IMG/VR virus record: IMGVR_UViG_3300014205_000218
Span: 5,880-69,879 of that record
Origin: a virus
Taxonomy: Duplodnaviria > Caudoviricetes
Strand: one strand, 5' to 3'
DNA: 64,000 nucleotides
Shown: positions 19,888 to 26,914 of the stretch, one piece after another
Position numbering within the stretch: the first letter of the stretch is position 1
How the letters are laid out: each line of letters opens with the position of its first letter
Notes under the pieces: model-generated
Seen by the model: the letters and a program-made list of their open reading frames with translations, nothing else
Database searches by the model: none
Told to the model about the DNA's origin: nothing
Program-made: the position numbers and the translations under genes

Positions 19888-20297
19888 ATCTATGGAGCCG
19901 CTTCACAACTCCGGTTCCTTCAGGCCGTGAATCCTGGCATACTTTCTCGCAGCGGCGAAGGGATCAAAACCATTCTTGTATGTCAACACCTTCGGACCGT
20001 TGACTGTATCGATAGCGACCGAAGTGCCGGCAGATTCCACTTCTGCCACTTTTTCCGGCGCCTGCGCCGCGCGGCAACAATCAAATTTCCTAATCTGGGC
20101 GCATTTTAAGGTGCTCTTTCCGCATGGGCACCGCGGCACGTCACGGCGGATCGGACGGCCGCCGCCAATCGCAGCATTAATGCGTGCGCGAAGGCGAAGC
20201 GCCTGACTCATCGTGATCTCCACAGGAGAGTCGCTATCTCCATCTGTCGGCGGCAATTTGATAAGTAGCTTACGTTCGTCCATGGATTTTGAAATGC

Positions 20298-20412
20298 AAA
20301 CTAGTATTACTCTTGAGTGTAAACTAGCTTCACTCTAAAATGCAAGCTAGTTTCACTCAATAATATTTACTAGCTTCGCTCATAGAGTTAGACTAGCTTC
20401 GCTCATGATCTG
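20298..20412. repeat. Five 23-bp tandem repeats with a CTAG core (operator/iteron-like)
   Basis: CTAG at 20301, 20324, 20347, 20370 and 20393; core CTAGYWTYRCTC; variable linkers. Confidence 0.85.
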
Positions 20413-20416
20413 AGCC

Positions 20417-21058
20417 CTAGAGAGTAACCCGAATCTCCTTTCGATCGGCCAGGTCTTTGGCTTGTTCTTCGGCCAGTATGCGCTTAGTTCTCTCCTTCAT
20501 TTCTGGCGTCATCTTTGAGAATCTAATACGCTCTAATTCGGTCTGCATAGCCTCCTTCCATATCTGAACCATCGTCCCGTCCGACGTGACCTTTACGCTC
20601 CGGTACCGTAGTGCCTTTCGGGCCTGCATAAAGGAACAAGCCACCGACTTAGTTCTCGTTTCATTCGGACAAAAGATTCGGAGGACGTTTCTATTGGTCA
20701 CCCACCCAAGCATTTCCGCCCATACACTAGTACGGATAACTCTGGTGGCTTCCCTTTTAGCTTTCTCTGTCAACCTTGGCTGGGAGACGCGCCAAGCGTA
20801 AATAAGATTGCCGTGAGTTAATACCTTGACCGGGTTCTGAAGGCGGCGCTGCAACTTGCGGAACTGTTGAACGATAGAGGCCACCTCAAAGTCGTTTTCG
20901 CAGGTGATCCGGGCCGCTTGCCCGACCCTAATACTAGCCAGCAACTCGACCCACTTGCCGGTAACGCGCCCCACTGCATATCTGATTTTAGGCTCCGTGA
21001 GTGAGTCAAAAGGCACTTCAGATGCCGGGATATGCTCTATTGTCATACCTCTTTCCAT
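20417..21058 (-). CDS. Hypothetical protein
   Basis: 213-aa ORF overlapping the upstream gene end; no recognised family. Confidence 0.55.
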   Translation of the reverse strand: MERGMTIEHIPASEVPFDSLTEPKIRYAVGRVTGKWVELLASIRVGQAARITCENDFEVASIVQQFRKLQRRLQNPVKVLTHGNLIYAWRVSQPRLTEKAKREATRVIRTSVWAEMLGWVTNRNVLRIFCPNETRTKSVACSFMQARKALRYRSVKVTSDGTMVQIWKEAMQTELERIRFSKMTPEMKERTKRILAEEQAKDLADRKEIRVTL

Positions 21059-22913: not shown

Positions 22914-23540
22914 CTAATTCTCCACAGACAAATCCACCACTTCCCCGGAAAGTTTAGGTCCCATCTGGCCGATGGCCCGCTGGATAGTGGAAGGTTTCGC
23001 CCCCAACGCCTTAGCAATCTCCCTTACAGAAGCGCCGGAGCGGTGTAAATCGAAAACGCGCTGCCGATCGAATACGGCCGGTCGGCGCCCGAGTATTGCC
23101 CCTTGCGCTTTGGCTCGTTCCAGCCCGGCGATGGTGCGTTCTGAGATGCGGATACGCTCCTGCTTGGCAATTGTGGCAAGGATCGACATTACAGCGTCCT
23201 TGAAGATTCCGCAGGAATCGAGGTACTGCTCGGTATAGGATTTGAAGCCGACGCCGCTCGCCTCCAGCCGATTGAGGTAGTTCAGCGTTTCGCGAACGCC
23301 TTCCCTTGAAAACCGATCCAGGCTCCAAAACAGGACAACATCAAATCTTCGCTTCGCGGCGTCGGCAAAGAGCGCCTTGAACTGGCTCCGATCGCCGGAT
23401 TTGGCGCTGGCGTGGTCGATGTACTCGTGGGTGAGCGTATACCCGTGCTTCAGGGCATATTCCCGGAGGTGAGGTAGTTGGTTCTCGGTATCCTGACCTT
23501 TGTCTTTAGTCGAAACACGGGCATAAATGACGGCTTTCAT
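22914..23540 (-). CDS. Serine recombinase (resolvase/invertase) with C-terminal HTH
   Basis: IYARVST catalytic Ser, SLDRFSR, ERIRISERTIAGLERAKAQGAILGRRP, and HTH. Confidence 0.93.
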   Translation of the reverse strand: MKAVIYARVSTKDKGQDTENQLPHLREYALKHGYTLTHEYIDHASAKSGDRSQFKALFADAAKRRFDVVLFWSLDRFSREGVRETLNYLNRLEASGVGFKSYTEQYLDSCGIFKDAVMSILATIAKQERIRISERTIAGLERAKAQGAILGRRPAVFDRQRVFDLHRSGASVREIAKALGAKPSTIQRAIGQMGPKLSGEVVDLSVEN

Positions 23541-23659
23541 GCTGGTAGTGTGCCATAATCGTGTACCTAAATGCAATAGGGATCGATAGGTAACAAATAA
23601 GCGCAGTAACAATGAAAATTCAAAACAATACGGCACAAAAATGTTCTGGTGATAGTATA

Positions 23660-23878
23660 ATGAAGATGAAGCCAGTGTATACGCCTGAAGAAGTTGCCGA
23701 AAAGCTCAAGGTAGGGAAGCCGACTGTGATGCGGTTGCTGAACAGTGGCGACCTTGTCGGGTCGCGGATCGGCCACAAGACATGGCGGATTACAGAAGAG
23801 GAACTAGAACGGTTTCTGGAGTCGAAAAAGGAGAAAAAGACTCCATCCTCATTAGGCGCGTTGGACACATCGGAGTGA
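23660..23878 (+). CDS. Excisionase-like HTH DNA-binding protein
   Basis: YTPEEVAEKLKVGKPTVMRLLNSGDL...WRITEEEL; TATAAT at 23656-61 suggests a possibly leaderless transcript. Confidence 0.85.
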   Translation: MKMKPVYTPEEVAEKLKVGKPTVMRLLNSGDLVGSRIGHKTWRITEEELERFLESKKEKKTPSSLGALDTSE

Positions 23879-23907
23879 ATTCAAAAATTCACAACAAGGA
23901 GGTTGCT

Positions 23908-24549
23908 ATGGCAACCACACAAGCAAAGACAGTATCGATCAAGGCTCCGAATTTCGGATTTGCCGAGTTCATGATTAAAGGGACGGAGGTCCTGGTTCAG
24001 CATCGGTTTTCGGCAAAGACGAAGGCCGAGATGAAGCAGAAGATGGAGATTGGGAAGGCCGCGGCGGGGAAGAAGAACAGAGAAGCAAAGGATACCGATC
24101 AGACGTTCAATGAGGCCCGGTACATTAGCCGGGAAGGGTGGGACGGTTTTAATGCCGCGGCTTTACGATCAGCGATGATTAGCGCCTGCCGGTTGGTGAA
24201 TTTCAAAATGACCCTCGCGAAGATGTCGATTTTTGTTGAGGCCGACGGCTATGACAAGTTGGAGCCTCAGATCCCGCTGATTCGTATTCACGGCAAGCCG
24301 GTCAAGCAGGAAGATATGGCTCGCGTACAGACAGGCCAACCGTATGTGACAGTCCGGGCGGCGTACCACGATTGGAAGGCGAAGATTCGCATTCGCTGGG
24401 ATGCGGATCAGTTCACGCTTGAAGACGTAACAAACCTACTGTCGCGCGTCGGGATGCAGGTCGGGCTCGGCGAAGGGCGACCGGATAGCAAGAATTCCGC
24501 CGGTATGGGATGGGGCCTGTTTGAAGTGGAGGGATCGAAAGCGGCATGA
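23908..24549 (+). CDS. Stand-alone Cas7/RAMP-like protein (candidate effector of a VIPR-type RNA-guided system)
   Basis: AAGGAGG RBS; beta-strand IKGTEVLVQH, helix GFNAAALRSAMISA, C-terminal Gly-rich loop VGLGEGRPDSKNSAGMGWGLFEV; upstream of the GGY-NN array. Confidence 0.75.
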   Translation: MATTQAKTVSIKAPNFGFAEFMIKGTEVLVQHRFSAKTKAEMKQKMEIGKAAAGKKNREAKDTDQTFNEARYISREGWDGFNAAALRSAMISACRLVNFKMTLAKMSIFVEADGYDKLEPQIPLIRIHGKPVKQEDMARVQTGQPYVTVRAAYHDWKAKIRIRWDADQFTLEDVTNLLSRVGMQVGLGEGRPDSKNSAGMGWGLFEVEGSKAA

Positions 24550-25061
24550 GTGACTCGGCGATTGTTTCAGAACTGCGGCGCATAGCGGAAGTAAACGGCG
24601 GCGAGTTACGGCCGGCAGATGTCGTTGAAGCTGCCCGTATTGAAACATCGCCGCTTCATCCTCAGTTTGACTGGGATGATACGGAGGCCGCCCAAAAGTG
24701 GCGGCTTCACCAGGCCAGGAGGCTGATTAAGGTCACTGTCGAGTATATCGGCGGCGATGAAGTGAAGATCCCTGCTCGGGTATTCGTAAGCCTGACGACT
24801 GATCGCCACAACGGGACCGGCTATCGAGTGTTGGCGGCAGTGATGTCCAATTCCGAGCATCGAAAGCAGTTAATGGCGGATGCACTCGCGGATATGCAGC
24901 GATTTGAGAAGAAGTATTCAGAACTGAAGGAACTTACTGATGTGTTCATGGCAATGCGGAATGTCAAGAAGGTAAAGTCAAGCCTTGATGACCCGATGCC
25001 GTGGCCGGCGGATTTCAGCGCAGTCCGCCCGGCGGATGCGCTGAAGCGCGCGTCAGTGTAA
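24546..25061 (+). CDS. Accessory protein coupled (ATGA) to the RAMP-like gene
   Basis: GELRPADVVEAAR...SPLHPQFDWDDTEAAQKWRLHQARRLI; stop codon 12 bp before the array. Confidence 0.75.
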   Translation: MSDSAIVSELRRIAEVNGGELRPADVVEAARIETSPLHPQFDWDDTEAAQKWRLHQARRLIKVTVEYIGGDEVKIPARVFVSLTTDRHNGTGYRVLAAVMSNSEHRKQLMADALADMQRFEKKYSELKELTDVFMAMRNVKKVKSSLDDPMPWPADFSAVRPADALKRASV

Positions 25062-25073
25062 GGGTTGTATCTC

Positions 25074-25404
25074 GGCTTGGATTGGTTGGGCAGGCTAGGC
25101 GAGGCTAGGCACGGCTAGGCACGGCTTGGCAAGTTAAGGTAATGCAGGCGAGGTCTGGCGGGGCACGGCAAGGTGAGGCGCGGCGCGGCATGGTAATGCA
25201 GGCGAGGCAGGGAGCGGTAGGGCATGGCGCGGCGCGATAAGGCAGGACAGGCGAGGCGGGGCAAGGATGGGCAGGGTGAGGCAAGATACGGCAGGCGAGG
25301 CGTGGGCCGGTATTGCTAGGTCGGGAATGGTTAGGTAATGCAGGCTAGGTGAGGCGGGGTGAGGCCCGGCTGGGCCAGGCGGGGCACGGCAGGCAAGACA
25401 TGCA
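25074..25404 (+). ncRNA. GGY-NN pentamer array (candidate multi-guide RNA precursor), about 6 units
   Basis: 59 pentamers, 50 starting GGC/GGT; units of 8-10 pentamers plus a 4-nt linker; junction GCAGGC(G/T)AGG recurs; NN positions are variable. Confidence 0.85.
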
Positions 25405-25419
25405 GGGTAAATAAACCAC

Positions 25420-25644
25420 ATGACTAAAAACAAACTCTCGAAAGAAGCACTCAAGTTTTTCCGCGAAGCAGGCCGCGATGGTGGGTTGAAGGGTGGCGCT
25501 GAAGGCGGCAAGAAGGCCGCTGGAAACATGACTCCCGAGCAGCGCCGTGAAAGGGCAAAGAAGGCCTCTACTGCGGCAGCGGAGAAGCGAAAGAAGGCAG
25601 CGGAGAAGCGAAAAGGTAAAGCATCCAAGAAAAAGCCATCATAA
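25420..25644 (+). CDS. Small basic protein with KGG-like motif
   Basis: GRDGGLKGGAEGGKKAAGNMTPEQRRERAKKA. Confidence 0.7.
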   Translation: MTKNKLSKEALKFFREAGRDGGLKGGAEGGKKAAGNMTPEQRRERAKKASTAAAEKRKKAAEKRKGKASKKKPS

Positions 25645-26914
25645 CCACCCATGCCCCACTCCAACCCCGACAACATCACGGTAATCACAGACGCGCTGAT
25701 ATCAGGCATTCACGGCCCGATCGCGGCCGGAGATGTGATAGTGATTCGGAATTGGGATGACGGCCCGGCGGCGTGGGAAGTGAGATTTGGTCCATTCACG
25801 GAAGAAGAGATCACGGAGGCGCGGAGGGTCGCCGGGAGGAAGATATGAAACACATCGCCACAGTTTACGGCTTAAACGTTGACGATAACGGCGATCCGAG
25901 ATGTGAGCGGATCGAATGTAACCGAGCCCACCGCCCGCTGTATATGTTCTATCCATTGGGCGAATTCACGCAATGCCCGCTATCTCTAGTGGAGTGGCCC
26001 GGCCACTTGCCGACGGCGGAGTTAGGAGACATGGTTGTCGATTTGCTTCTACGGGGCTCGACGGTAGAGTTCAGCCGGCGTGGGATATGGGGAGTGGAGG
26101 CGAGGGCCGAATAATGCCTGACATCGGAATCGATCCACAGAAAGCAATCGCGGAATGGGAGCGCCGGAAAGCCATCAAGGCCGCTGAGGCCGCGGTGATA
26201 GAGGCGGCTATCCCAGTGGGGATCTATGGTGACGACTGGAGCCCTGACGACATGAAGGAACTAAATCTCGCGGTTCGGGAGTTACTTGAAGCGCGGTGTG
26301 TTGAAGTTGATGCTCGGTTTGTAAATGAGAGAGTCCAGATCGGCGGCGCATACGGCGGCCCCGACTTGGAGGTGGTAAATGAAGCGTAGATCGTTGCTCG
26401 GGATGCTCGCGGCAGTATTTGTGGGAATGTTTCGCCCGGCGAAGGCGCCCGCAGCGCTGCGGCCCGCGCCGGAGTGGAAAAGGCTAATGATCGTGACAAC
26501 CATTGATCGTGAGCGGCATATTGTTCGAGTGTGCCCGCCTGATAAGGTTGAGCCATCTGAAGAGGTTTCACTCAGCCCTAAATCAGTGGAGAAACTGGAG
26601 GCCAGTGGTTACTTGACGGCTAGGATGGTAGTTCTGTTTGGCCCCCTGGCCGATGACATCGAGATCGTCCGTAAACTTGGAGCGCCGATATTGTGGGCCG
26701 GGGATCACATCGGCGGGATTTCGGGTACAGTCAACCGTTCAGAGGGGACCGATAAATGAACCAGAATGAAAAATCTCACTTTTTCGCAGGAGCCTCAGTT
26801 GGTTTCGCAGTGGGAATATCGATCACTTTGATAATCGCCGCCGTAGCGACCTGGCGCTTTGCCCCCTAAAACATTCCCCCACAAAAACGTTTCAAACATA
26901 ACCCATAACACCCG

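Follow-up and report, generated by a model that had tools for sequence, protein, structure and literature searches.

The question raised by the open reading frame at positions 23908–24549 (+ strand) of a phage sequence is what kind of protein it encodes and whether that protein acts alone. A preliminary description of the sequence had called it an orphan Cas7-like protein outside any CRISPR-cas locus. The sequence analysed here, referred to below as the window, is a stretch of 64,000 nucleotides; the IMG/VR phage record from which it is taken (bases 5880–69879) is complete at 69,879 bp and has direct terminal repeats. Our answer is that the gene is very probably the vipr gene of a phage VIPR (Viral Interference Programmable Repeat) system. 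Systems of this kind, which are encoded by phages and silence DNA in a CRISPR-like manner with RNA guides, were first reported in 2026 (preprints April–October 2026; bioRxiv 10.64898/2026.04.26.720920, 10.64898/2026.04.26.720927 and 2026.10.15.759431). These preprints describe Vipr as a minimal stand-alone RAMP protein that polymerises on a guide RNA (vrRNA) composed of GGY-NN pentamers; Vipr hides the GGY bases and presents the NN dinucleotides. The latter read double-stranded DNA with every third base left out, and the gene that is bound is thereby silenced.

The reading frame itself proved to be a genuine and widely conserved gene. It opens with an ATG located 5 nt downstream of a ribosome-binding site that can be read from the sequence (AAGGAGG, 23896–23902, + strand), and it encodes a minimal RAMP protein of 213 aa. 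A phmmer search of 1.84 billion representative proteins returned 2127 clusters at 50% identity (E ≤ 1e-3), and at 90% identity 5851 clusters were found at E ≤ 1e-10, all of them unnamed and lacking a Pfam domain. The sole family-library match was to PHROG 4652, a family of unknown function. Searches with the protein against Pfam, NCBIfam and PADLOC gave no match at E ≤ 10, and an Rfam scan of the 64-kb window returned nothing. The three motifs that had prompted the Cas7 proposal are all present as quoted, namely the first beta-strand MIKGTEVLVQH (with I23, G25, L29 and H32), the helix NAAALRSAMISACR (residues 83–96) and the glycine-rich loop string GLGEGRPDSKNSAGMGWGLFEV (residues 186–207).

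An AlphaFold 2 (AF2) model built from an alignment of 83 homologs (pLDDT 95.1, pTM 0.88) contains the elements by which membership of the RAMP fold is judged: an RRM core, a beta-hairpin thumb (residues 132–153) that carries R150, and a C-terminal glycine-rich loop (residues 186–203); a helical insertion occupies residues 36–70. When the model was compared with the PDB by Foldseek, 47 of 47 matches at E ≤ 1e-3 were CRISPR RAMP proteins, mostly Csm3, Cmr4, type VII Cas7 or Cas7-11, and type IV Cas7 was also among the structural matches. VIA-align, a structure search independent of Foldseek, likewise placed CRISPR RAMPs at ranks 1–27 throughout, the best being Csm3 (9g9a_D; Z 12.1, rmsd 3.3 over 149 residues), Cmr4 (Z 11.7) and a second Csm3 (Z 11.3). 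Because the leading matches in both searches are CRISPR RAMPs, a non-RAMP fold, the outcome that the preliminary description had named as fatal to its proposal, can be set aside.

The resemblance to Csm3 and Cmr4 of CRISPR type III extends over the architecture of the RRM, thumb and G-loop (∼150 aligned residues). The phage protein, however, shares only 8–10% sequence identity with them, matches no Cas or RAMP HMM, and is accompanied by neither a cas operon nor a CRISPR array. Going by the VIPR preprints, it would also differ from them in occupying 5 nt rather than 6 nt per protomer and in having DNA rather than RNA as its target. Membership in the CRISPR Cas7/Csm3/Cmr4 group was rejected on the grounds that there was no sequence-model match, no cas operon and no CRISPR array. 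The backbone-type RAMP fold assigned by the preliminary description is therefore upheld by AF2, Foldseek and VIA-align, but the Cas7 identity is not, since the protein in all likelihood belongs to the separate Vipr family. In the published phylogeny, Vipr falls outside Cas5, Cas6 and Cas7 (bioRxiv 10.64898/2026.04.26.720920).

The link to the Vipr family was found at the level of sequence. The only PDB sequence match of the protein was 36pp, "SUSP1 Vipr protein," with E 0.028 for the single sequence, and the profile of the 83 homologs matched the same entry with E 8e-7. With phage Alf5 (NC_031082.1) as the SUSP1-type comparison locus, hhalign aligned the homolog profile to the Vipr of this Felixounavirus with 95.3% probability and an E of 2e-8, the alignment spanning 58 columns at the C-terminus; similarity in sequence to SUSP1 Vipr is limited to the last ∼60 residues. 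In SUSP1 Vipr the GGY bases are held by H17, R138, D177, W178 and R179 (10.64898/2026.04.26.720927). Here, H17 corresponds to H32, R138 to R150 (kept in 79 of the 83 homologs), D177 to E189 (kept in 62/83) and R179 to R191 (kept in all 83). The stacking residue W178 is replaced by an invariant glycine, G190, next to which the G-loop contains an 8-residue insertion carrying W202.

The description of the gene as an orphan did not hold, because an accessory gene and a guide array adjoin it directly downstream. The first of these is a candidate vap (Vipr-accessory) gene (24546–25061, + strand; 171 aa; PHROG 15946), the ATG of which overlaps the vipr stop codon in the sequence ATGA and which is taken to be translationally coupled to vipr. 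Its product is 35% identical to that of its positional counterpart in cyanophage Cy-LDV1, and a homolog adjoins vipr in 65 of the 77 related loci described below. In the AF2 model of the accessory protein (pLDDT 88), residues 1–104 gave weak VIA matches (Z 5–6.3), nearly all of which were winged-helix DNA- or RNA-binding domains, and the N-terminal ∼100 aa may accordingly be called weakly winged-helix-like. Foldseek with the same model returned nothing below E 1e-3, sequence searches of the PDB and Pfam gave no match, and a comparison with vap1 of the SUSP1 type revealed no similarity. The VIPR preprint states that the products of several vap genes are DNA binders of a winged-helix- or HTH-like kind; the weak matches to the model would be compatible with this while proving nothing.

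Upstream of vipr lie a small serine recombinase gene (22914–23636, − strand; Resolvase and HTH domains, 240 aa) and, back-to-back with it, an HTH_17 excisionase-like gene (23612–23878), the end of which is 30 nt from the start of vipr. In cyanophage Cy-LDV1, too, the VIPR locus has an excisionase gene at its flank. Downstream of the VIPR locus, terminase and head genes provide the viral context. Two further observations were made elsewhere in the window. A 23-bp tandem repeat, AATGTAAACTAGCTTCACTCTAG, at 20293–20404 (4.9 copies, 70% matches) fills the gap between the minus-strand ORFs 19903–20283 and 20417–21058 and looks like a set of iterons or an operator array. ARAGORN called a tRNA-Ile with the unusual anticodon AAT at 91–185 (− strand), the length of which, 95 nt, suggests an intron or a false call.

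The guide array begins 12 bases past the accessory reading frame with a leader tract of four pentamers ending in GGCAG (25074–25093, + strand). It is followed by six guides, or vrRNAs, arranged back-to-back on the same strand as vipr and without a 3′ tail. Guides 1 (25093–25147) and 2 (25147–25201) have 11 pentamers each, guide 3 (25201–25250) has 10, guide 4 (25250–25294) has nine, and guides 5 (25294–25343) and 6 (25343–25392) have 10 each. Guide 3 ends in GGCAG GACAG and guides 4 and 6 end in GGCAG; guide 5 is the most degenerate, and guide 6 is made up of perfect GGY pentamers. Guides 1, 2 and 5 all close with the units GGTAA TGCAG, which are probably structural. Read as codon positions, the NN dinucleotides of units 1–9 in guide 2 spell [DE]LGT[NK][DE]AA[IM], and those of units 1–6 in guide 6 spell YEGDPW. 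Degenerate trailing units, GGCAA GACAT GCAGG (25392–25406, + strand), close the array. Directly after it there is a very basic, Lys/Ala/Glu-rich ORF of 74 aa (25420–25644, + strand), which may encode a small nucleic-acid-binding protein.

Each guide ends in xGCAG, the last G of which is also the first G of the next GGC, so that the pentamer register is interrupted by a 4-nt phase break. A search pattern of five GGY-NN repeats matched the array 29 times, counting overlaps, compared with 0.22 matches expected by chance. The information content of the units was 1.65 and 1.60 bits at the two G positions and 0.82 bits at Y, versus 0.26 and 0.14 bits at NN. Computed over its full length, the array had no strong fold (z −2.0), and no second pentamer array was found elsewhere in the complete phage genome. 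Arrays in which successive guides share 1 nt at their junction are termed staggered in the legend to Fig. S18 of 10.64898/2026.04.26.720920. That preprint represents the staggered form by a figure only, and its small-RNA sequencing covers the other array forms and not this one.

The same arrangement was seen in a set of 77 loci with a Vipr homolog, comprising 69 from IMG/VR, seven on MAG contigs and that of cyanophage Cy-LDV1. Same-strand GGY-NN tracts lie within ∼1.2 kb of the vipr homolog in 69 of the 77 loci; across the whole set, 311 tracts are on the strand of the gene and 3 on the other. More than half of the former (180/311) end in GGCAG, 109 one-base-overlap junctions were counted, and the NN positions of the 311 tracts carry 0.12 and 0.01 bits. 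In a group of IMG/VR loci (L096–L110) the vipr genes are near-identical, whereas the number and the content of the guides differ, both between vipr and vap and after vap, indicating that the arrays turn over quickly. The VIPR locus of Cy-LDV1 (L001, BK059895.1, 4001–5570) is annotated only as hypothetical proteins; it consists of vipr (g34), a four-guide staggered array, the accessory gene (g33) and a second array of two guides.

Targets of the guides were sought under the published one-base-skip rule (NN-x-NN-x) with the cut-off of the preprint, an NN match of at least 80%. No site in the phage genome reached this value, the best being 17/22, and the VIPR preprint likewise reports no self-targets. 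Echoes of the guides in the genes of the phage were rejected as being at chance level. For the six guides, exact 16-base cores gave 23, 10, 4, 62, 37 and 18 matches in IMG/VR. The 16-base core of guide 2 had 23 matches compared with 22 for a control with shuffled unit order, and therefore the raw IMG/VR counts amount to chance; it was only by analysis of flanks and context that VapE was singled out for this guide.

Two of the 23 IMG/VR matches of guide 2 also fit unit 1 (18/18), and both of them lie in VapE-like primase/helicase genes with a PF05272 domain (E 7e-70 and 5e-71). The two genes are 35% identical to each other and are matched at the same motif. In the JGI metagenome collection the 18-base pattern of guide 2 had 65 exact matches, 45 of which fall in VapE-like primase/helicase genes; the ∼20 non-VapE matches serve as an internal background in place of a shuffled control. 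All 45 sit on the motif (F/Y)(T/S)D(D/E)..(D/E)LGTKDAA(M/I), in genes that are 35–72% identical to the reference and form, by inspection, several distinct sequence classes. The largest class matches guide 2 at 20 of 22 NN positions, with GGTAA TGCAG as the mismatching units. Among 120 VapE homologs, 20 fit all nine residues coded by guide 2 and most of the others fit 7 or 8 of 11. None of 200 shuffled guides reached 9/9 on the VapE homologs, a test that is partly circular because the family had been chosen through guide 2. The phage genome itself has no VapE gene. We put the chance that VapE-like genes, a match found post hoc, are the true natural target of guide 2 at about even.

The remaining guides gave less. 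The YEGDPW units of guide 6 match 16/20 in the VapE class hit by guide 2, at an in-frame site lying 396 nt further downstream; this is a weak lead only, since 35 of 300 shuffles match as well. The IMG/VR matches of guides 1 and 3–6 did not converge on one target, and none was convincing. There was no excess over shuffles when 188 guides of relatives were compared with this phage genome, and none over the control when 169 guides of relatives were compared with VapE loci. Pattern searches of five homolog-bearing MAGs and of 401 genomes from each of two phyla gave either 0 matches or 4 versus 3 in the control. None of 81 genomes from the phylum to which G001 belongs (a record titled Acidobacteria) yielded PF05272. 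Some of the VapE-bearing metagenome contigs with the guide-2 target, among them L284 and L319, encode proteins 33–50% identical to products of minus-strand genes of the phage; on L284, a 500-aa ORF is 40% identical over 409 aa to one of these. Since the contigs share proteins with the phage, the targeted elements may be related phages from the same habitats.

Extrapolating from work on type II systems, one can propose how RNA binding, filament formation, guide processing and DNA silencing would proceed at this locus. By homology with SUSP1, one Vipr protomer would occupy each GGY-NN pentamer of the guide RNA, with the GGY bases hidden by the protein and the NN dinucleotides left exposed. A filament of ∼10 protomers would then read double-stranded DNA by the NN-x-NN-x rule, passing over one of every three bases, and would silence transcription of the gene it binds. 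Guide 2 would be predicted to bind the conserved codons for (D/E)LGTKDAA(M/I) in VapE-like primase/helicase genes. The role of VIPR in this phage is likely to be conflict with rival mobile elements.

A more specific reading of the same system, which we regard as tentative and would not at present favour, is that the clade represents a mechanistically distinct VIPR variant in which guides are set by phase breaks, a remodelled G-loop reads GGY differently, and the VapE genes of rival elements are silenced. At the break between xGCAG and the following GC, one Vipr filament would stop and another begin, and guide length would be set by the register of the array instead of by a structured handle. 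That the phase break acts as a ruler of guide length is, taken by itself, a conceivable but somewhat doubtful proposition. G190 and the 8-residue insertion would alter the reading of GGY. Guide 2, and possibly guide 6, would silence VapE-like genes of rival integrative elements or satellites, and codon positions 1 and 2 would be read in motifs unable to mutate.

The orientation of guide 2 bears on whether the system acts on DNA at all. In each of the 45 metagenome matches the guide runs in the sense of the VapE coding strand; it therefore cannot pair with the mRNA, which leaves the template strand of the DNA as its only partner. This result argues against the view that the protein has a RAMP fold but binds or processes RNA in the manner of Cas6 or Csm3, acting on RNA by cutting the array or targeting transcripts. 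That view draws on the presence of Cas6 endonucleases among the structural matches of Vipr (Z 8.1 and 7.8), on the RNA-targeting role of Csm3 and Cmr4, the subunits that match best, and on the processing of staggered arrays, which has no established route. Against it, the backbone-type RAMPs outscore Cas6 structurally, and the homologous SUSP1 system binds double-stranded DNA, as stated in 10.64898/2026.04.26.720920 and 10.64898/2026.04.26.720927. We consider action on RNA improbable.

A second possibility is that a phage captured a decayed or miniature CRISPR-Cas system, such as a type IV-like one, of which the protein is the Cas7 remnant, and that the pentamers are unrelated low-complexity DNA. 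Phages are known to carry mini CRISPR-Cas loci, and the phage protein is structurally close to type IV Csf2 and to Cas7 of types I and III (Z 9–10). The complete phage genome, however, contains no Cas1, no Pfam RAMP match (PF03787) and no CRISPR-like direct repeats, which also bears out the earlier statement that the gene lies outside any CRISPR-cas locus. In addition, no Cas family model matches Vipr, and the pentamer array co-occurs with vipr on the same strand in 69/77 loci. These data bring the remnant close to refutation, and we give it very little credence. Finally, the notion that the pentamer tract is coding or structural DNA next to a RAMP-like protein with an unrelated phage function can be dismissed as barely credible: a 191-aa minus-strand ORF (25134–25709) does span the array mechanically, but a stop-free frame is expected opposite GGYNN repeats, the period of 5 nt is not a multiple of 3 and is broken by 4-nt phase shifts, the NN positions carry ∼0 bits across the 311 related tracts, and array length and unit number vary freely among near-identical loci such as L096–L110.

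With the gene taken as a vipr gene, the locus can be compared with the VIPR forms already in print. It resembles staggered VIPR, as described in 10.64898/2026.04.26.720920, in having a stand-alone RAMP, an adjacent accessory gene and same-strand GGY-NN guides with 1-nt overlaps, and in being encoded by a phage in the absence of cas genes or a CRISPR array; unlike the staggered VIPR of the preprint, it comes from an uncultivated IMG/VR phage. It shares with type II VIPR (Escherichia phage SUSP1, Felixounavirus; PDB 36pp) the order vipr-then-vap, flanking guides and the pentamer code, and with SUSP1 Vipr the thumb arginine, the G-loop arginine and profile-level homology. The guides of the SUSP1 type, as seen in Alf5, have 10–16 units and a structured tail of ∼45 nt and lie well apart, up- and downstream of the genes, whereas the guides here are tail-less and contiguous, G190 stands in place of W178 beside the 8-residue insertion, and the accessory protein is unrelated to vap1. 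Membership in type II VIPR (the SUSP1 clade) was rejected because of the tail-less guides and the lack of similarity to vap1.

The VIPR class is already in print, and this locus is an uncharacterised example, clean and complete, of its staggered-array form in an environmental phage; the picture of what VIPR is stays unchanged. The class itself is months old, and CRISPR RAMP effectors have been proposed to descend from it; the systems characterised so far are only the type II system of SUSP1 and that of P. fulva. What is new here is the match of guide 2 to the VapE motif, which offers a concrete and testable natural target. The locus is thus suited to the study of how tail-less guides are measured and processed and of the use of VIPR against rival replication modules.
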